Of a DNA stretch of 64,000 nucleotides, positions 593-10,428 are shown in pieces (the stretch's first letter is position 1; the number at the start of each line of letters is the position of its first letter). A program made the translations under genes and the position numbers. This stretch comes from a virus, in IMG/VR virus record IMGVR_UViG_3300023174_000053, positions 64,001 to 128,000 of that record; one strand, given 5' to 3'. The notes below the pieces were generated by a model. It saw only the letters and a program-made list of their open reading frames with translations, was not told where the DNA came from and did no database searches.

Positions 593-787
593 TTAAAAAT
601 CTAAAAAGTTTCCACTGATATAATCAAGTGATAATACTTCAAGGTTTTCTTTTTGAATTACCCAATCACGGATTTCATCATAGATACATTTCGCATCTCT
701 TGCTCTACCATCTTCACACAAATCATGCATACGATTGATATGTTGTTGTATTGTATCATTACAGATTTTTTTGAGGTGAAGTTTCAT
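593..787 (-). CDS. Small hypothetical protein (MKLHLKKICND...)
   Basis: ORF track 593..856; ATG at 787 preferred because a sigma70 promoter lies at 828-856. Confidence 0.6.
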   Translation of the reverse strand: MKLHLKKICNDTIQQHINRMHDLCEDGRARDAKCIYDEIRDWVIQKENLEVLSLDYISGNFLDF

Positions 788-1205
788 AAAAGTAATCTTT
801 CCTAAAATACCTTGAAAGTATGTTAGAATTATAGTACTTTGGCACTCCACCGTCAAGTGCTTCCGTCAAAACGTTATTCAAAAACAACTGCCTTGTCTCT
901 TCATAGTTTGTCTTACCTAATGTCTTATGAAGAGATAAAATACTTCTTTTGAACTTATCTTTACCTAATAACTTAATATCATCTTTCAGTTCAGGACAAG
1001 AACCATAATAATTTTTCCAATCACTTTCTTGTTTTACTTTTCTTTTCTTTCCTTTTGGTGTTCTAAAAGACCAAAAGTATTTTCTTCCCAAATATTTTCT
1101 TTGAGTTTCTTCACAACTTATCAAATAAACAAATCCAAAATTCTCTTGAATATCTTCTGTCTCAAAAACTTTTCCTTGATATAACCAAGGGTTTTCATAA
1201 CTCAT
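759..1205 (-). CDS. GIY-YIG family endonuclease (conserved T4-like phage protein)
   Basis: GFVYLI...KYLGRK motif, YYGS, conserved E and YYN near C-terminus. Confidence 0.75.
   Translation of the reverse strand: MSYENPWLYQGKVFETEDIQENFGFVYLISCEETQRKYLGRKYFWSFRTPKGKKRKVKQESDWKNYYGSCPELKDDIKLLGKDKFKRSILSLHKTLGKTNYEETRQLFLNNVLTEALDGGVPKYYNSNILSRYFRKDYFYETSPQKNL
828..856 (-). promoter_or_regulatory. Sigma70-type early promoter
   Basis: TTGACG-17 nt-TATAAT inside the upstream endonuclease gene. Confidence 0.65.
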
Positions 1206-1322: not shown

Positions 1323-3452
1323 TCAATCTTCGTCTTTTGGTTTAAATCTTCCAATTTCAGGCATTGAGTGTTGTTGCTTACCACCTCTCTTAGCAACACT
1401 TGTTCTTACACTATTGATATTATCAAATCTTTGAAGTTCTTTCATTCTTGCCTTTCTTTCCTTAGAACCAACATCAGTTCTTAGTGCTTGTAGTTGTCCC
1501 TCTTCATTATCAAGGAGTTTGCTTTCCTTTCTCTTCATTTTAGCAACAGGAAGAGGTTTCTTTTCTTCCATAATACTTTCAAACCAACCCTCACTCATAT
1601 TGTTGATAATCACATTTGCGTCATCAATTGTATTAGCAAAGTTATTTTCTAAAAGATATGATGCTACAAACTCGTATGCTTCATATGCCTCTCTATTGAG
1701 CATCTTTTTCTCTCTAGGGGTCAAAGCACTTCTTTGTGCTCCTCTTGCTGCCTGCTTTGCTTTTACCGTAGGGTCATTGGACTTATAAGCATATCCGTGA
1801 AGACCAGGATTTGAAGAAGTTGTATCACGGAAATCACCTCTTTGCTTTCTAGCAAGATTTTGTCTTGCATTTTGTTTTGCACTATCTCCATAAGTTGGTC
1901 TGTTTTCAAGTGCAGTTGCTCTATCAGCAGATTCTCCACCTTTTGTGTTTCTAGCAATCGTATTACGAATTGCAACCTCATCATAACCTCTCTTAGCCAT
2001 CGCAGTTGCTTCATTCGCAAGAACTTTCTTACGAATTGCTCCAGCAACTCTATTCCCTGCTTCTTTTGAACCATAACGTTTTGCAGCAGATGCAGCAATC
2101 TTCTTAAACATCAAACCTGGTTTGCCTTCGTCTCTTTCTTCAATATACTCAAGTTCTTCATAAATCTCAAACATATCATCCCAAGTATATCCACTTAGGT
2201 CATAACCTTCTTCAATAAGTTCATTTACCCAAAGTTCAACTTCTTCATTATAAGATTTGTTCTTCACCATAGCAATTGCTTTTGCTTTGGGAACACCAGA
2301 AGCAATCATTCTCGCAATTCTTACATCCGCAAAGTCATTATCACCATCTTCGTCTTGGTCTACTTTTTTCTTTGCTTCGTAGATTGAAGCATAAGCACCT
2401 GCAATTTCTCTAATTGTTTTTGCAGAAGGCCATTGATATGAAGAGGTTACATCTGACTTTTTGATGTCAAGTGCTTTTTTGAGCCTATCGGTTTCACCAG
2501 AAGAAGATGAAGAACCAGAACTTGAAGAAGATGAAGGAGTAGGAGTGCTTGGACCTCTATCATTATCAGCATTTACTCTTGCTGAAATCACATCCTTTCC
2601 TGCTTGTGGTGTTGAACTATTAGCAACCTTTCTTGCAAGTCCTGGATTAGAACGAGCCCAAGTATCCATAGGATTTGCTGAACTTGCTGCTGGTTTTGGT
2701 ACTGCAGAAGCAGCAGGTTTTACTGGTGCTGTAGGTGCTGCTGCTGGTTTTGCAGCTCCGCCAGAACTACTAGAACCACCAGAACCAGAACCAGAACCAC
2801 TTCCCGCAGAATATGCAGAAAGTCCAGTTGTTGAATGTACCGACGAAGAACCCGAAGTTGGTCTAGAACCAGGAGGGGCAGGTTTGCCTTGATCCATTCT
2901 TCCGAGATTTTTCTTACCTTGTGCAATTACTTGTGCAGTGCTACTTCCCATACCTTTTTGTGCAGCAGCATTTCCGCCACCAGCAGAATATGCTGATCTA
3001 TCAGCAGCAGATAGTCCAGAAACACCAGTAGAAGTTACTGATGATCCTTTTGGTGTTGTAGTTCCAAACTGTGGTTTTGTTGCTGCTGGTGGTTTTTGTA
3101 CTGGTGGTTTTTGTATACCAAATGCATTCCCGTATGCAGCAACATCATTTGCTCTATTTTGTGTTCTTTGACTTTGTTGTCTAGCAGAAGCAGCTGTTTG
3201 TTCTGCTCTTTTTTTATCACCAATTTGTTGAGACCTTTGCATAAATGTTTTTGCCGCAGCACTGTCACCAGAAGCCGCAGCTGCTCGTGACAATCCAGCA
3301 TTTCCACCTATTGAGGCAAAGGTATCTCTACCTTGTTGTGCTTGTTGAGCCTTTTGCACTCTATCAGCACTATAAGGTCCTTCATTCAACTGCTCTCCAC
3401 CATAAACACTTGAATATAACTCGTTCAATGCGTCTAAATCTTTTTTATTCAT
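1323..3452 (-). CDS. Low-complexity modular protein, probable internal head/virion protein
   Basis: 709 aa; Gly/Ser/Ala/Pro tracts, acidic helical modules, many L/I-x-E sites, late promoter upstream. Confidence 0.6.
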   Translation of the reverse strand: MNKKDLDALNELYSSVYGGEQLNEGPYSADRVQKAQQAQQGRDTFASIGGNAGLSRAAAASGDSAAAKTFMQRSQQIGDKKRAEQTAASARQQSQRTQNRANDVAAYGNAFGIQKPPVQKPPAATKPQFGTTTPKGSSVTSTGVSGLSAADRSAYSAGGGNAAAQKGMGSSTAQVIAQGKKNLGRMDQGKPAPPGSRPTSGSSSVHSTTGLSAYSAGSGSGSGSGGSSSSGGAAKPAAAPTAPVKPAASAVPKPAASSANPMDTWARSNPGLARKVANSSTPQAGKDVISARVNADNDRGPSTPTPSSSSSSGSSSSSGETDRLKKALDIKKSDVTSSYQWPSAKTIREIAGAYASIYEAKKKVDQDEDGDNDFADVRIARMIASGVPKAKAIAMVKNKSYNEEVELWVNELIEEGYDLSGYTWDDMFEIYEELEYIEERDEGKPGLMFKKIAASAAKRYGSKEAGNRVAGAIRKKVLANEATAMAKRGYDEVAIRNTIARNTKGGESADRATALENRPTYGDSAKQNARQNLARKQRGDFRDTTSSNPGLHGYAYKSNDPTVKAKQAARGAQRSALTPREKKMLNREAYEAYEFVASYLLENNFANTIDDANVIINNMSEGWFESIMEEKKPLPVAKMKRKESKLLDNEEGQLQALRTDVGSKERKARMKELQRFDNINSVRTSVAKRGGKQQHSMPEIGRFKPKDED

Positions 3453-3506
3453 CTTCTTAGGAGCAGTAAAAAGTACTTTTCTATATTTATTTAGTGTTTT
3501 TTAATA

Positions 3507-4847
3507 TCAATCAATAAACTGTTTCCAGTACTCATAAGAACTCATCTCTTCTCCCATATTCTTTCTTGCTTTTTTACGTGCTCTTTGTGTTTGTTTAGTA
3601 GTTTTTGGAGCAGCTGGTTTATCTCTTATTCCCGTTCTACCAGGCCTAAATGGTTTAGTTTCTGAACCAAGTCTAACAGGAACAATATCACCTTTTTTTG
3701 ATTTGCCTTTTATTTTTCTATCAGGTTTAGATTGAACTACTCGGGTAACAAATGCCCTTGTCCTAGAAGAAGGAGATTCGTTATGAGCTGCTTGGGCCAT
3801 ACTATGTGCCTGTGAAGGAATATCATCGTAAGTATCTATTGAGGATATTCTTTGGCCAGATTTTAATCTATTTTTTATAATAGAAGCAGCAGCTATTGCT
3901 TTTCTTTTTGGTCCAGAAATATTTCTAGGCATATTTCCAGTTAAATGTAGTTTTCCTCCTCCATGAGCACCTAATCCCAACATTCCAACATTTCTTAAAT
4001 GTTGTACCATCATTTGATTTCCACTTTTTGATTTATCATCATTATAATTACTCATTTGACCGCGAGCTGTGACCGCAGATGTTGGATTTATTCTTCTAGG
4101 ATTACTTCTTCTGTGTCCTGGTTGCACATGAGTTATAACAGCACGGTTACCTGAAGTGCCTCTAAGCATACCTGCATCATCAAATGACCCCTTTCCTTTA
4201 AAATCATAATGATGTCCTTTTGGTAATTTATGGTCTGCAAAATCGTGAGAACTAAGATTTTCCTTGGTTTCACCAGAAGGATTAACAACTTTAACTTTAG
4301 ATTTACTTGCCTTAAGAAATGCATCATCTAAATCTGAAAGTTTTACAGCTCTTGAAAGTTTTGCTTCTTCAATATACTCTTCAAGAATGACTGCTAAAAA
4401 TTCACTACTCATATGTTCAAACATATTTTCGGCAGTCTCATAATCTTCTGCGAATTCACTATCAACCAAAGTTTCAATTACATAATCATAAATGTTTTCT
4501 GTTTCTTCTTTTTGTGCTGCGTAATAAGCACCAAGTGCTCTCTTAATTCTTTGCTTCTTACTATCACCTTTGAAGGTTTTGCTCTTTGAATGGACGAAAT
4601 CACTGATTGTCGCACCAGCATCAGCACCTACATCAATCTTTTCATTTACTTCTACTTCTTCTTTTTTCACTGAAAGAAGTTTTGGTCCATTTAACTTCTT
4701 TTCTGCTGCTGCCTTTTCTCCAGGATTTGTAGTTCCTGCAGCAAGATTTGCAATTTTTGCTTTCCTTTTTGCTGCATTATGTCCTGAACCAATATCAAAA
4801 CTTACACCTTCACTGTAAATTCTTTTGAACTTAGAAATTCCAGACAT
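3507..4847 (-). CDS. Basic modular protein, probable internal head/virion protein
   Basis: ORF track; shares an acidic module with 1323..3452; TATAAATA late promoter at 4871-4878. Confidence 0.55.
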   Translation of the reverse strand: MSGISKFKRIYSEGVSFDIGSGHNAAKRKAKIANLAAGTTNPGEKAAAEKKLNGPKLLSVKKEEVEVNEKIDVGADAGATISDFVHSKSKTFKGDSKKQRIKRALGAYYAAQKEETENIYDYVIETLVDSEFAEDYETAENMFEHMSSEFLAVILEEYIEEAKLSRAVKLSDLDDAFLKASKSKVKVVNPSGETKENLSSHDFADHKLPKGHHYDFKGKGSFDDAGMLRGTSGNRAVITHVQPGHRRSNPRRINPTSAVTARGQMSNYNDDKSKSGNQMMVQHLRNVGMLGLGAHGGGKLHLTGNMPRNISGPKRKAIAAASIIKNRLKSGQRISSIDTYDDIPSQAHSMAQAAHNESPSSRTRAFVTRVVQSKPDRKIKGKSKKGDIVPVRLGSETKPFRPGRTGIRDKPAAPKTTKQTQRARKKARKNMGEEMSSYEYWKQFID

Positions 4848-4870
4848 ATGAGTAAGCAATACCTTCTTTT

Positions 4871-4878
4871 TATTTATA
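4871..4878 (-). promoter_or_regulatory. T4-type late promoter
   Basis: TATAAATA. Confidence 0.7.
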
Positions 4879-4880
4879 AT

Positions 4881-4903
4881 AAAAAGAGGGGTCGAAACCC
4901 CTC
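4881..4903 (-). terminator. Intrinsic terminator closing the nrdA-nrdB-endonuclease-deamidase unit
   Basis: GAGGGGT-TTCG-ACCCCTC-TTTTT (UUCG loop). Confidence 0.85.
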
Positions 4904-5318
4904 ATATTACATTTAATCCTGGTTTTAATACTTCATATTTTCCATTATTAAAAACAACCCCAGAATAATAGTTTTTACCATTAAACTCACAGAACATATT
5001 ATATTCTCTACTATCTTCAAATGGGGTTATATCTATTAAGTTTCCATAGGTATTTTTCCAGATACTATGGTATATCGCACACCCATAACTTTCATCATCA
5101 ATATCTGTGATTAAATAATAACCACTTATCTTTTTCCCCCCATAAGTATTTGTATAATGATTTACATTATTGTGGCAGTTTGCATCAGCGCATAAAGGTT
5201 TAACTACCACAGGAACTTTCAATAGAATAGAAGAAAAACTACAATACTCCTGAAGTTTTATTACACACTCATCTTCTGGTAGTGATATTCTAAATTTTCT
5301 CTTCAATACTCCATCCAT
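4902..5318 (-). CDS. Putative transglutaminase/papain-like Cys-His-Asp enzyme (candidate protein glutamine deamidase)
   Basis: NC48HNNV...YGG..ISGY...AIYH84SIW...GNLID96ITP: order and spacing of a C-H-D triad; overlaps the endonuclease 3' end by 29 nt. Confidence 0.6.
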   Translation of the reverse strand: MDGVLKRKFRISLPEDECVIKLQEYCSFSSILLKVPVVVKPLCADANCHNNVNHYTNTYGGKKISGYYLITDIDDESYGCAIYHSIWKNTYGNLIDITPFEDSREYNMFCEFNGKNYYSGVVFNNGKYEVLKPGLNVI

Positions 5319-5907
5319 TTGTTCTAGGTCCTTTTCTATTATACTTTATTGCGGCACTCATAGTCGCATATGAAATATTTTGAGATTTACAAAATTCTTT
5401 TAATCCTCCAATAATAACATATTCTTCATTTTCTGGAGAAATAATTTTCCAAGTTTTGGAATTTGAATTATCTTTTCCAAATTTTGGATGTATATTTTGA
5501 CTTATTTTGGTTTTTGTTTCTTGTGATAATTTAACTCCATATCTTGGATTATTTTTTCCTGCTACTTTTTCACTTATTCTTTTCTTTGCTTCTTCTGTGT
5601 GGGTTCTTCCACCAAAACCAGTAGTTTTTTGCCCTCCTGGTTTTCCATCACCACCAAGATTTTGATTTAATAAAACTCCGCCATCACACTCTCTTTTCCA
5701 AAGAGCGATATGTTTAATTTCCAAATCTATTGCTTCTTCTTTAGTTAATCCAGATTTAACTACATATCTCCTATGTCTTGGGGGAAGTATTTCTGCTCCA
5801 TTTCTTCTAGAATGTCTAGCATTAATTCTTCGTGGTTTTCCATATCCAACATAATATGGAGAACTAAAATCTTCCCTCAAATAGTAATAAAGAATATAGT
5901 TATTCAT
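5290..5907 (-). CDS. Free-standing GIY-YIG homing endonuclease with NUMOD3 repeats
   Basis: YILYYYLRED..PYYVGYG..RR, EA..LE..HI, GVLLNQNLGGDG, NUMOD3-like GRTHTEEAKKRISEK and GVKLSQETKTKISQ. Confidence 0.85.
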   Translation of the reverse strand: MNNYILYYYLREDFSSPYYVGYGKPRRINARHSRRNGAEILPPRHRRYVVKSGLTKEEAIDLEIKHIALWKRECDGGVLLNQNLGGDGKPGGQKTTGFGGRTHTEEAKKRISEKVAGKNNPRYGVKLSQETKTKISQNIHPKFGKDNSNSKTWKIISPENEEYVIIGGLKEFCKSQNISYATMSAAIKYNRKGPRTNGWSIEEKI

Positions 5908-5967: not shown

Positions 5968-7152
5968 TTAAAGTTGAAATCCAGCAAATGTGTCTTTTTC
6001 CACATCTTGTTTAATTCCACCAACCACATAGGACTGAACTTGTGTTTGTTGTGGTGCTACTTGAAGTCCCTTAGAACTAATCCAATGCTCCGTCCAAGGG
6101 AGTGGATTGTTTTTAGCAGCAATATCATAAAGTGGTTTAATACCAATAGACTTCATACGACGATTCGCAATCCACTCAACATAACTCCAAAGAAGTTTGT
6201 CGTTCAATCCAATCATTGAACCATCTTTGAACAAATATTCTGCCCACCTCTTTTCCTCATTTACACAATTCTCAAAAGCACCTTTTACCCATTCCTCTTC
6301 TTCCTTAGCAATTTGTTGCATTTCTGGATCATCTCCTTCACGCCATTTATTGAGGATGTTTTGAGTAATAACAAGGTGCTGATTTTCGTCTCTTGCGATG
6401 AGAGAGATAATTTTAGCGGATCCTTCCATAAGTTTGAGTTCACCAAACGCAAACGAGCAAGCGAAAGAGACATAGAATCTGATACCTTCGAGAATATTGA
6501 CATTTGCTACTGCACGATAGAGTTTTCTTTTGAGTTCATATCTTTCATCCTTTGCAGTTCCAGCACCTTCTTGTGCGTGAACCCAAAGATTTGAGTTTCC
6601 ATAATGTTGTGCGGAATTAATAAAGTCATCATAAGCACCAGTTACTGATGATGCCCGTTCAAGAATTTTTTCATTACTCAAAATAGAATCAAAAACTTCT
6701 GTGGGATCAGAGTAAACATTCTTAATAATGTATGTATAGGAACGACTATGAATCATTTCCATAAATTCCCAAACCTTCATACACGCTTCCAATTCAGGAA
6801 GAGAACAATAGGGAGTAAAAGCCATTCCGGGACCACGACCCTGAACTGAATCCAAAAGAATTTGATACTTCAAATTAGAAGTGAAGATGTGCTTTTGTTC
6901 TGGACGAAGAGTTTGATAATCCGCACGATCTTTCTGCAAAGAAACTTCTTCTGGTCTCCAGAAATATCCCAACTGCTGTTGAGTCAGTTTATCAAAGACT
7001 GGATACTTATAAGTATCATATCTTTGAACTCCAAGAGGAGCACCAAAAAACATAGGTTGCTTTTTGGCATCTACCTCTTGAGTATTAAATACGGTCATTC
7101 CTTCAATCATTTTTTCTTTCTCTGCAGTGGTTCTAAATTTTACAGGATTCAC
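5968..7152 (-). CDS. nrdB: Ribonucleotide reductase class Ia beta subunit
   Basis: FWRPEEV, DSVQGRGP, EMIHSRSY, LEGIRFY, RDENQH; the C-tail carries atypical QQTQVQSY; probable GTG start at 7152. Confidence 0.97.
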   Translation of the reverse strand: MNPVKFRTTAEKEKMIEGMTVFNTQEVDAKKQPMFFGAPLGVQRYDTYKYPVFDKLTQQQLGYFWRPEEVSLQKDRADYQTLRPEQKHIFTSNLKYQILLDSVQGRGPGMAFTPYCSLPELEACMKVWEFMEMIHSRSYTYIIKNVYSDPTEVFDSILSNEKILERASSVTGAYDDFINSAQHYGNSNLWVHAQEGAGTAKDERYELKRKLYRAVANVNILEGIRFYVSFACSFAFGELKLMEGSAKIISLIARDENQHLVITQNILNKWREGDDPEMQQIAKEEEEWVKGAFENCVNEEKRWAEYLFKDGSMIGLNDKLLWSYVEWIANRRMKSIGIKPLYDIAAKNNPLPWTEHWISSKGLQVAPQQTQVQSYVVGGIKQDVEKDTFAGFQL

Positions 7153-9430
7153 AATCTTCTTCTCCACCTTCTAAAAGTTCTTTAACTAAATCATCAATAC
7201 TTACTTTATCTTCCTTAACTTCATCAGTCTTATTATCATATGTATTTTGATAATATGCCGTCTTATGCCCCAGTTTAAAACAAGTAAGCATATCTTGTGC
7301 CATTACACTAACAGGAACTTCATTATTGGCATAATTCTCTGGATTATACGACCAGTTTCCAGAAATCGCTTGATCGAAGAATTTCTGCATAACTGCAACA
7401 ATATTAATATACCCACGATTGCTAGGCATATCCCAAAGCAACGTATAGTTGTTTTTAAGATGTTGATACTGTGGAACAATCTGTTTGAGAGGTCCTTTTT
7501 TAGATTTCTTAATTGATAAGAATCCACGAGGAGGTTCAATTCCATTAGTTGCATTTGAAACTACAGAACTTGATTCTGATGGCATTTGTGCTGTAAGAGT
7601 GGAGTGTCTCAATCCAAACTCTTTAATTGACTGTCTTAGTACTTCCCAATCGTGCTGAAGAGGAACAGAAGACACTTCATCTACATCTTTCTTGTAAGTA
7701 TCAATAGGAAGAATACCCTGCGAATATTTAGTACGATTGAAATATTCGCAAGCACCCTTTTCTTTAGCAACTTCATTTGATGCTTTGAGAAGAAAATATT
7801 GGAATGATTCAGACAATTGATGAACTGCATCCCAAGCCTCTTGAGTATCATAATTAAACCCAAGTTTAGCAAGATAATGTGCTAAACCAATATAACCAAC
7901 ACCCAAAGACCTACGTGCTTTAGTTCCAATCTCTGCAGCAACTATAGGATAGTTTTGATAATCAATCAATTCTTCCAAACCACGAACAGAAAGATTGCAA
8001 AGATCCTCAAACTCTTCATCTGATTTTACTTTACCGACATTAATAGCAGAAAGAATGCAAAGTGCAATCTCACCATTAGGGTCATCAATATGTTGAAGTG
8101 GGATTGTTGGAAGTGTAATCTCTTGGCAAAGATTACTCATTTCAACCTTATCAGTAAAGGATGAATGAGAATTACAATGGTCGATATTCATAATGTAAAT
8201 ACGACCTGTTTCAGCACGTTCTTTCAGGAGGTCCAAAAAGAGTTCTTGAGCTCCGATAGTCTTTCTAGGAATAGATTCATTTCGTTCTGCATCAACATAA
8301 AGATCGTCAAATCTATCAGTCCCAAAAGCATCATAAAGACCAGGAACTGCGTGTGGAGAGAAAAGTGAGATTTCTTCGTTTTTAATAAATCGTCCATAGA
8401 ACAGTTTAGAGATTTGGATACTGTAATCTAACTTACGAACACGATTATCCTCCGTACCCTTGTTGTTTTTTAAGACTAGAATGTCTTCGATTTCTTGATG
8501 CCAGATAGGAAAGTGGACTGTAGCAGAACCACCTCTGATGCCGTTTTGTGTGCAGCATCGCACAGTTGCCTCAAACTTTTTAAGGAAGGGGACCACACCT
8601 GTGTGCTGTACCTCTCCGCCTCTGATTTTAGAGTTGATGCCACGGATGCGACCTGCGTTGATGCCGATGCCTGCCCTTTGAGCAACATACCTCCCAATAG
8701 CCATATCACTACTGAAGATGCTATCGAGGGTGTCATCAACATCAACAAGAACACAACTTGCAAATTGACGAAGTGGTGTTCTAACTCCTGCCATAATGGG
8801 AGTTGGGATGTTGATTTTGTGTTTTGAGATTGCGTCATAATACCTCTTCACATATGAGAAACGTGTTTCTTTTGGATATCTAGCAAAAATAGTAGCAGCA
8901 ATCATCATATACATGAACTGTGGAGTTTCATATACTTGACCACTACTGCGATCTTGAACCAAATACTTATCAACTACTTGACGAAGACCAGCATAGGTGA
9001 AAAGATAATCTCTACTATGCTTGATATAACTACCAAGTCTATCAAGTTCTTCTTTCGTATAATTGGTCAAAATTTCTGGATCATAAACTCCAACATCTAC
9101 ACAACTATTAATGTGTTCGACAAAATCAGGATGATCTTGAACTCTTCCGTACAAAGATTTTCTTACAGAAAACAGAAGTAGTCTTGCTGCAACAAACTGA
9201 TAATTTGGATTATCCAAATCAATTAAATCAGAAGCAGAACGAATTAAAATCTCCTGAATTTCTGCTGTGGTGATTCCATCATAAAATTGAATACCAGATT
9301 GCATCTCTACCTGTGATGCAGAAACACCAGAGAGGTCTCTACATGCCTCCTCAACCATCAAGTGAAGTTTATTTAGATCAAGAGGTTCATTATCACCACT
9401 TCTCTTAACTACTTTTGTACCGTTGCTCAT
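7133..9430 (-). CDS. nrdA: Ribonucleotide reductase class Ia alpha subunit
   Basis: ATP-cone (VVKRSG), PTPIMAG, SCVL, SNLCQEI, AYYQNT, C-terminal CESC. Confidence 0.98.
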   Translation of the reverse strand: MSNGTKVVKRSGDNEPLDLNKLHLMVEEACRDLSGVSASQVEMQSGIQFYDGITTAEIQEILIRSASDLIDLDNPNYQFVAARLLLFSVRKSLYGRVQDHPDFVEHINSCVDVGVYDPEILTNYTKEELDRLGSYIKHSRDYLFTYAGLRQVVDKYLVQDRSSGQVYETPQFMYMMIAATIFARYPKETRFSYVKRYYDAISKHKINIPTPIMAGVRTPLRQFASCVLVDVDDTLDSIFSSDMAIGRYVAQRAGIGINAGRIRGINSKIRGGEVQHTGVVPFLKKFEATVRCCTQNGIRGGSATVHFPIWHQEIEDILVLKNNKGTEDNRVRKLDYSIQISKLFYGRFIKNEEISLFSPHAVPGLYDAFGTDRFDDLYVDAERNESIPRKTIGAQELFLDLLKERAETGRIYIMNIDHCNSHSSFTDKVEMSNLCQEITLPTIPLQHIDDPNGEIALCILSAINVGKVKSDEEFEDLCNLSVRGLEELIDYQNYPIVAAEIGTKARRSLGVGYIGLAHYLAKLGFNYDTQEAWDAVHQLSESFQYFLLKASNEVAKEKGACEYFNRTKYSQGILPIDTYKKDVDEVSSVPLQHDWEVLRQSIKEFGLRHSTLTAQMPSESSSVVSNATNGIEPPRGFLSIKKSKKGPLKQIVPQYQHLKNNYTLLWDMPSNRGYINIVAVMQKFFDQAISGNWSYNPENYANNEVPVSVMAQDMLTCFKLGHKTAYYQNTYDNKTDEVKEDKVSIDDLVKELLEGGEEDCESCKI

Positions 9431-10428
9431 ACTCGTTTCCATCCAATAAGTTTTGCTTTTGCTTCTAGTCCCATATAAGTATTTTCCTTGATGATTTTTG
9501 GGGCATCAATTCCTGATAGGATCATATCATTAATATCCTTTTCTTTCAAGTCATTTGGCCAAATGACAATTGGAAATCGCATTTGTATTGCTTTTTCCAT
9601 TCTATCAACAATTTGTTTATTCCGTTTTTCATTATCATATACCATTACAAAATCTGTTCCAAAGTTAGAAACAAAAAACATTTTGTCAATGTCTGCACCA
9701 ACCATAGCAATTGAATTATCTAAAAACATACTATCAAATGGTCCTTCAACAACATAAACAGTTTTATCGTAATCTGGTTTATCCAAATTGTAAATTTTTG
9801 GATGTGTATCATTAAGAATAATTGTAATGTATTTTACCTTTGAGTTTTTATTTAAACTACGACCTTGAAATCCAAATATTTCTCCTTTATTGATTAAAGG
9901 AATAATGATTCGTGGTTCGTCCTTTTCTACTTTATCAAATGTGTGTTTTTGAGTATTCGTCCATTCTTTAAACTTCTCACAGAAATACAATTCACGCAGA
10001 TAGTTGTTGGGTATCTTTCTATCTTCTAGGTATTTTCTTGCGGAGTGTTCTTTATTTAGTTCTGCGATAGTAGGTAGGTCAAATGCCTTTTTTGAAAAGT
10101 TTGGTTTCTCAAAATTAAACTCTGGGTTCTTTGTTTGTGATCCTCTTCCTGTTATTCCCTCTTTATATCTCTCCATTACATACTGGTCGTAAAGAACAGT
10201 ATCCATATCTTTTAGAAAGTTTGTAAAAGTTCTAGAAGTCCCACAATTATGACATTTGAAATTGTGATCATTCTTTAATTGGTAAATATACCCTCTTGTT
10301 TTACTCTTTGTCTTTTGACTATCACCACAGTAAGGACACCGAAAGTTATAAAGACCTTCTTTCTTCTTAGCAAACTTATCCAGTCGGGAAGAAACCAACC
10401 CGATATATTTGGAATCAACAAAACTCAT
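9427..10428 (-). CDS. DNA primase (gp61)
   Basis: Zn finger CPYCGD...CHNC; TOPRIM VVEGPFD, YDNE, KDIND. Confidence 0.95.
   Translation of the reverse strand: MSFVDSKYIGLVSSRLDKFAKKKEGLYNFRCPYCGDSQKTKSKTRGYIYQLKNDHNFKCHNCGTSRTFTNFLKDMDTVLYDQYVMERYKEGITGRGSQTKNPEFNFEKPNFSKKAFDLPTIAELNKEHSARKYLEDRKIPNNYLRELYFCEKFKEWTNTQKHTFDKVEKDEPRIIIPLINKGEIFGFQGRSLNKNSKVKYITIILNDTHPKIYNLDKPDYDKTVYVVEGPFDSMFLDNSIAMVGADIDKMFFVSNFGTDFVMVYDNEKRNKQIVDRMEKAIQMRFPIVIWPNDLKEKDINDMILSGIDAPKIIKENTYMGLEAKAKLIGWKRV

Follow-up and report, generated by a model that had tools for sequence, protein, structure and literature searches.

What does a 138-residue Cys-His-Asp protein do behind a homing endonuclease gene, and why does the ribonucleotide reductase gene just ahead of both encode glutamine where the E. 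coli enzyme has an essential glutamate? The locus lies in the window, the 64,000-nt stretch analyzed here (positions 64,001 to 128,000 of IMG/VR record IMGVR_UViG_3300023174_000053), whose source record is a 171-kb T4-like cyanomyovirus. On the minus strand, nrdA, nrdB, the endonuclease, ORF138, and a terminator-like hairpin follow one another in that order. The explanation that we favor, with belief and doubt evenly matched, is a mobile "recode-and-repair" cassette, in which ORF138 would be a protein-glutamine deamidase that restores glutamate in an NrdB tail recoded to escape the endonuclease.

ORF138 and its predicted fold

The features on which the argument draws are the following.

7133..9442, minus strand: nrdA, large subunit; equivalents of K154 and S647, which contact E350 of the beta tail in E. 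coli, are kept
5968..7167, minus strand: nrdB, class Ia ribonucleotide reductase small subunit, 399 aa; diiron ligands and radical Tyr (Y122) are kept
6028..6048, minus strand: recoded NrdB tail, putative substrate site, placed by alignment to E. coli beta
6046-6048, minus strand: Q374 (E. coli E350 position)
6040-6042, minus strand: Q376 (E. coli E352 position)
6034-6036, minus strand: Q378 (354 position)
6028-6030, minus strand: Y380 (E. coli Y356, the radical-relay Tyr)
5290..5907, minus strand: free-standing homing endonuclease, 205 aa; GIY-YIG-type N-terminus (by motif reading), NUMOD3, and a C-terminal DNA-binding part
4902..5318, minus strand: ORF138, 138 aa, Cys-His-Asp protein of no described family, putative protein-glutamine deamidase
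5175-5177, minus strand: C48 codon of ORF138
5067-5069, minus strand: H84 codon of ORF138
5031-5033, minus strand: D96 codon of ORF138
4876..4903, minus strand: intrinsic terminator-like hairpin with a 7-bp GC-rich stem, TTCG loop, and T-run, closing the nrdA-nrdB-endonuclease-ORF138 unit

ORF138 starts with ATG and shares 29 nt (5290-5318) with the endonuclease ORF, and its TGA (4904-4902) covers the first two stem bases of the hairpin; the sequence-only reading had described both the overlap and the run of the stop codon into a UUCG terminator correctly. The terminator scan placed stem, loop, and T-run at 4903-4886 and found 4 terminator-like sites against 0.7 expected from shuffles. ORF138 is present in a single copy in the 171-kb record. 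It is a real gene, because it has close homologues in aquatic metagenomes (n = 123), a dN/dS of ∼0.2 against 20 orthologues, and a C/H/D triad that is intact in 87 of 87 orthologous copies. An exhaustive search returned 139 representatives at E ≤ 0.001, whose common core spans residues 35-112.

Across 67 diverse relatives, C48 and H84 are invariant (67/67 each) and D96 is kept in 66, so that the conservation on which the sequence-only reading had staked its proposal is found; N51 (64/67) and T98 (65/67) are nearly as constant. Beyond the close clade, the other cysteines (C18, C26, C43, and C80) vary in this alignment, which argues against a metal cluster, and a Zn or Fe-S site was rejected on these grounds. 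We also rejected ORF138 as a frameshifted C-terminal part of the endonuclease, since NUMOD3 and a C-terminal DNA-binding part are already present in the endonuclease and ORF138 has a conserved start of its own and occurs alone elsewhere, and as an ordinary backbone gene beside an endonuclease landing site, since it is missing from all cultured relatives.

In an AlphaFold2 model built with the family alignment (pLDDT 93), helix 48-59 begins with C48, and two consecutive strands, 78-88 and 94-96, hold H84 and D96, respectively. With its Cys opening a helix and its His and Asp on strands that follow one another, the modeled layout is papain/transglutaminase-like. The triad is spaced by 36 residues from Cys to His and 12 from His to Asp, which we take to resemble arylamine N-acetyltransferases and LapG-type proteases. 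Judged from the model, ORF138 would work like a papain/transglutaminase-like enzyme, and we claim no membership in that superfamily. The earlier label "transglutaminase-like" thus holds for the triad, its spacing, and the model topology, and finds no counterpart in Pfam, in PDB sequences, or in a convincing fold match.

Pfam returned no matches to ORF138 at E values up to 1, and no enzyme family and no member of the papain/transglutaminase clan for the 67 relatives; a search of the whole phage record for PF01841 (Transglut_core) was equally empty. The best hit of the ORF138 profile among PDB sequences (E 0.15) was an unrelated DNA-polymerase-derived chain, and a Hint/intein-like reading prompted by this match was set aside. 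Foldseek matched nothing in the PDB. VIA-align gave weak matches over residues ∼38-117 with Z at most 3.7: TglA (Z 3.6, rmsd 2.9, 74 aligned), PeiW (Z 3.1, rmsd 3.2, 73 aligned; PeiP was also among the matches), staphopain C (Z 3.1, rmsd 2.4, 65 aligned), LapG (Z 2.7), and NAT (Z 2.6). These transglutaminase/papain-like matches tie with glyoxalase-type beta-alpha-beta-beta-beta folds (Z 3.0-3.7), and glyoxalase-type matches with Z no higher than 3 were all that a second VIA pass returned. In BFVD, a GIY-YIG fusion protein ranks first by fold, and YunG-like clusters of the Protein Atlas by features scored 0.85-0.88, below the trustworthy level. PHROG 37148 is the sole library family that matches ORF138 (E 2.3e-6, residues 18-104); it is without annotation, and only the first half of its 210-position profile aligns to ORF138.

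Occurrence of the domain and mobility of the cassette

In the close clade, the order nrdB, endonuclease, ORF138 always holds, in three long metagenomic contigs and ∼80 viral contigs. Every sampled phage homologue, apart from relatives fused to SEC-C, lies directly downstream of nrdB, in several architectures. More remote homologues (41-48% identity) directly overlap the end of nrdB, and no endonuclease separates the two. Other lineages have the domain fused into the first protein encoded after nrdB, at the N-terminus of a GIY-YIG/NUMOD3 protein or at the C-terminus of a DUF723 protein. A search aimed at longer, fused homologues returned a single protein; the fusions were recovered through the search for representatives and the inspection of contigs. 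Homologues are thus tightly linked to both endonucleases and nrd genes, the second point on which the sequence-only reading had rested its case.

The cassette is missing from 221 cultured cyanophage records with nrdA-nrdB and is found at the same site in ∼80 uncultured relatives. Presence and absence of the ORF138 domain changed 17 times on the NrdB tree. Among the 55 unique domains recovered by the Gln-tail scan described below, a GIY-YIG endonuclease is fused to 29 and encoded separately in the locus of 24, and for two none was detected. The proposal that endonuclease and ORF138 form a mobile unit with an enzymatic passenger is supported: 53 of the 55 domains are fused or adjacent to a GIY-YIG endonuclease, and cultured cyanophages lack both genes.

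The endonuclease of the window matches NUMOD3 in Pfam (47.7 bits) and PHROG 314, "homing endonuclease"; its N-terminal 100 residues have no Pfam match of their own. Over its full length, it is 39% identical to the endonuclease of locus L015, a LEM-3_GIY-YIG + NUMOD3 protein. The nuclease itself can be exchanged, as loci whose ORF138 is 93-97% and whose NrdB is 95-96% identical to those of the window carry an endonuclease that is just 39% identical. In L015-L019, the swapped endonuclease has 248 aa (LEM-3_GIY-YIG/NUMOD3) against 205 aa in the window, and some loci match the window endonuclease in its C-terminal half only (52-58% identity).

With a nuclease so regularly at hand, ORF138 might help the endonuclease at the DNA level, in target choice, regulation, or repair, and the glutamines would then be tolerated immunity polymorphisms that call for no protein repair. 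The association in 53 of the 55 unique domains, the fusions to GIY-YIG/NUMOD3 or DUF723 nuclease-type modules, and the GIY-YIG fusion protein at the top of the BFVD matches would all fit such an accessory. We nonetheless consider this improbable. The invariant triad on a helix/strand scaffold suggests catalysis on a carbonyl substrate and not DNA binding, and an immunity that tolerates wobble would not need Gln specifically. In some lineages (L369, L373, and L252), the domain follows a Gln-tail nrdB and the 2.8-4.6 kb of sequence downstream yielded no endonuclease, and ORF138 and NrdB copies of 97% and 96% identity flank endonucleases that are 39% identical, which indicates that the domain follows nrdB and not a particular nuclease. 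For the recode-and-repair cassette, the near-constant presence of an endonuclease, in three gene arrangements, suggests that the recoding serves the endonuclease.

A separate subfamily combines the same Cys-His-Asp domain with a C-terminal SEC-C motif and occurs away from nrdB, in bacteria and gut phages. In the human gut phage contig MT836086 (L317:4875-5459), the fused gene is flanked by genes for a Y-family polymerase (IMS/IMS_C) and a YolD-like protein, with an HTH/IrrE-type pair upstream, and in L316:795-1394 it follows a PC4-like gene. The SEC-C-fused subfamily might target a different client protein, and its position away from nrdB implies that the fold is not dedicated to NrdB.

Other insertions were observed around these loci. 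A second free-standing endonuclease gene of the window (759-1205, minus strand) encodes a SegE-type GIY-YIG domain (173 bits) and lies 3.7 kb downstream of the cassette in the same variable region; copies of it recur in related loci, with varying position and orientation. Between the cassette and this SegE-like gene, two large low-complexity ORFs of 450 and 709 aa (1323-4859, minus strand) encode Ser/Gly/Ala/Pro-rich and charged segments without Pfam families, and the 450-aa ORF has relatives of 45-62% identity in a few related loci only. In L007:835-4144, nrdA is cut into pieces of 484 and 346 aa by a 253-aa ORF without Pfam match, like the "genes-in-pieces" reductase described for Aeromonas phage Aeh1. 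L001:2677-4126 holds an extra GIY-YIG/NUMOD3/NUMOD1 endonuclease and two small ORFs between nrdA and nrdB, on top of the cassette after nrdB.

Glutamine in the NrdB tail

The NrdB tail of the window reads Q-Q-T-Q-V-Q-S-Y, against Q-E-V-E-V-S-S-Y in E. coli and Q-E-T-E-V-E-S-Y in cassette-less phages. Turnover of E. coli class Ia ribonucleotide reductase requires two residues of the beta tail, E350 and Y356, the former of which positions the tail in alpha (PMC8463856, PMC9248007, PMC11482829); there, E350 hydrogen-bonds K154 and is also contacted by S647 (PMC11482829). Q349/E350 are not universal across reductase subclasses (PMC8463856), so Gln might be tolerated in these NrdBs.

A triad opposite a glutamine substrate would also suit a true transglutaminase that links a tail Gln to the K154 equivalent of NrdA, or to another protein, and so tethers or regulates the holoenzyme; the hydrogen bond between beta E350 and alpha K154 in E. 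coli (PMC11482829) and the retention of this Lys in the window NrdA fit such a link. For product to be released, the beta tail has to withdraw from the active site of alpha (PMC8463856), so that turnover is expected to suffer from a covalent tether, and the essential carboxylate would still be missing after cross-linking. We hold this explanation to be very improbable.

We examined the association between cassette and tail in 313 loci, 160 of which were fetched by NrdB queries and hence blind to ORF138. The domain was detected by HMM on six-frame ORFs, absence was scored only where at least 1300 nt were available downstream, and counts refer to unique NrdB C-terminal halves (68 with the domain and 115 without). 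Gln occupied position 350 in 48/68 NrdBs with the domain and 0/115 without (Fisher 2e-28), position 352 in 65/68 vs 14/115, and position 354 in 56/68 vs 0/115. In some 30% of cassette-bearing NrdBs (20/68), position 350 is still Glu and recoding is confined to 352/354; as positions 352 and 354 have no documented essential role, repair of E350 is not the whole story. Two have a fully Glu-type tail despite the cassette. These are L029 and L039, with tails Q-E-T-E-Q-E-T-Y and Q-E-T-E-V-E-S-Y, and they may be recombinants between tail and cassette, which lie about 70-140 nt apart. A few cassette-less tails with Gln at 352 and Glu at 350 (Q-E-T-Q-I-E-T-Y and Q-E-T-Q-I-S-S-Y) are seen in L236-L250, L255, and L301. 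Gln at 352 alone is thus tolerated without the domain, whereas Gln at 350 is never seen without it.

Shared ancestry was addressed with a tree of 174 NrdB sequences from which the last 40 residues, containing the tail columns, had been left out, using 11 independent presence/absence pairs on supported branches. Q350 tracked presence in 7.6 pairs on average and ran opposite in 0 (median p 0.008), and Q352 tracked presence in 10.2 pairs and ran opposite in 0.1 (p 0.002).

At the nucleotide level, association with the cassette is strongest, among 1230 nrdB alignment columns, for the first bases of the three codons (differences of 0.96, 0.96, and 0.67). The linked changes, located 64-78 nt ahead of the stop codon of nrdB, are G->C at the first codon position (Glu -> Gln). 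We rejected a broad co-conversion tract, as differentiation along nrdB between carriers and non-carriers stays at ∼0.05-0.15 and rises only in the three-codon window. Carriers use both CAA and CAG where non-carriers use GAA and GAG, indicating that Gln is maintained at the amino-acid level.

The reverse test, again blind to ORF138, searched viral contigs for any DNA that encodes Q-V-x-P-Q-Q-T-Q-[VI]-x-x-Y. It returned 80 loci, all of them NrdB tails (80/80) and some of them from another large phage group, whose NrdB is of a different type, and the domain lay downstream in 73/73 loci with enough sequence, with no locus lacking it. The three-way genomic association and its phylogenetic independence are established by these tests, and chance or shared ancestry alone is a very unlikely source of the link between domain and Gln tail. 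The check suggested by the sequence-only reading, for E->Q changes at a neighboring essential gene, was therefore positive for the phage's own NrdB tail.

That reading had also offered a fallback, in which ORF138 is a general effector (a deamidase, protease, or acyltransferase) acting on host or rival proteins unrelated to NrdB and hitch-hiking in the endonuclease cassette. The SEC-C-fused relatives in other contexts do suggest further uses of the fold, but an effector of this kind leaves unexplained both the absence of Gln 350 from all 115 NrdBs without the domain and the presence of the domain after all 73 assessable Gln tails, across several architectures and independent lineages. The data point instead to the phage's own NrdB tail, and we consider the effector highly doubtful.

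The main rival would make ORF138 a weapon. As a cysteine protease or modifier, it would act on the Glu-rich tail (Q-E-T-E-V-E-S-Y) of co-infecting cassette-less phages, from which the carrier escapes by Gln recoding; together with the endonuclease, it would attack the rival nrdB both as DNA and as protein. The same covariation of domain and Gln tail is predicted, and papain-like Cys-His-Asp triads are most often those of peptidases. Recoding is, moreover, less frequent at the essential 350 (48/68) than at 352 (65/68) and 354 (56/68), as would follow if the point of recoding is escape and a change at 350 is costly. Yet most carriers, and the fused-form clade almost without exception, have E350 recoded, which should inactivate their own reductase unless it is repaired (PMC8463856, PMC9248007). 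The replacement is also near-exclusively Gln, which fits a reversible amide better than simple escape. Finally, prediction of a complex between ORF138 and the last 60 residues of its own, Gln-type NrdB passed, if weakly, at 0.43 against 0.00 for the best control, and lends weak support to the favored explanation as well. The pass mark was reached by 58/80 solved complexes and 2/110 mismatched pairs, and passes at 0.60 or under comprised just 7/80 solved complexes and both of the mismatches that passed; runs agreed in at least 41% of contacts, with a partner pLDDT of at least 37. On this evidence, we regard a weapon as unlikely.

The proposed cassette and known systems

Under the recode-and-repair proposal, ORF138 would be a minimal Cys-His-Asp enzyme acting on the C-terminal tail of its own phage's NrdB. 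It would hydrolyze the side-chain amide of the encoded Q374, and probably those of Q376 and Q378 too, and thereby regenerate the glutamates needed for radical transfer to NrdA. Deamidation is the simplest chemistry linking a Cys-His-Asp enzyme to a peptidyl-Gln where Glu is needed; we infer this chemistry, NrdB as its substrate, and the Glu-coding tail as the target of the endonuclease. ORF138 would travel together with the GIY-YIG homing endonuclease, whose insertion site lies directly behind nrdB. The three G->C changes are, on sequence grounds, candidate immunity polymorphisms that most likely make the carrier nrdB a poor endonuclease target, and ORF138 would undo the cost of the recoding at the protein level. 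The complete cycle, in which the endonuclease spreads by cutting Glu-tail nrdB, carriers with Gln codons are immune, the cassette deamidase restores Glu, and the phage comes to depend on the cassette, is possible, although for the cycle as a whole doubt somewhat outweighs belief.

If true, the cassette would add a third means by which homing elements conceal their cost, the other two being introns and inteins, and ORF138 would be the first known enzyme to restore a catalytic residue of ribonucleotide reductase after translation. Homing endonucleases would not be confined to targets with silent or tolerated immunity changes, as even an essential residue could be recoded if a protein-fixing enzyme came along; the element would be addictive to its host, and its enzymatic "passenger" would be explained. 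Minimal Cys-His-Asp enzymes would also emerge as a family that is widespread in aquatic phages yet unannotated, with SEC-C-fused kin in bacteria and gut phages.

T4-like phages are known for free-standing homing endonucleases at the nrd locus, for seg genes, and for "intronless homing". T4 mobE is likewise a free-standing endonuclease gene beside nrdB, and a cassette of the window type is also presence/absence polymorphic among related phages. MobE nicks the nrdB of phages without mobE, and its own genome is spared via polymorphisms (PMC2790892). In contrast to mobE and the seg genes, the endonuclease here is accompanied by or fused to a conserved Cys-His-Asp protein, and the linked polymorphisms are non-synonymous Glu-to-Gln changes both at an essential residue and next to it.

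Glutamine deamidases and protein-glutaminases with Cys-His-Asp triads include Cif/CHBP, OspI, the PMT C3 domain, and the Chryseobacterium protein-glutaminase. Enzymes of the Cif/CHBP type share with ORF138 the triad order, in which a Cys that opens a helix is followed by His and Asp on consecutive strands, and convert peptidyl-Gln to Glu, as is proposed for the ORF138 substrate. ORF138 differs in having no sequence match or convincing structural match to them and a core of only ∼110 residues, and in its putative role, which would be to restore an enzyme of its own phage rather than to inactivate a host protein.

A genome-encoded Gln that a dedicated enzyme deamidates to the working Glu is familiar from chemoreceptors and CheB/CheD. 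The parallel to ORF138 lies in the encoded Gln and its proposed post-translational conversion to Glu; CheB/CheD differ in having unrelated folds and a regulatory purpose, with no mobile element or essential catalytic residue involved.

Self-splicing introns and inteins with homing endonucleases have their cost removed after the DNA level, so that the interrupted essential gene is still productive, and nrd genes are classic sites of both. There, the correction is a splicing of RNA or protein, whereas in the cassette described here it would be the hydrolysis of side chains by a trans-acting enzyme.
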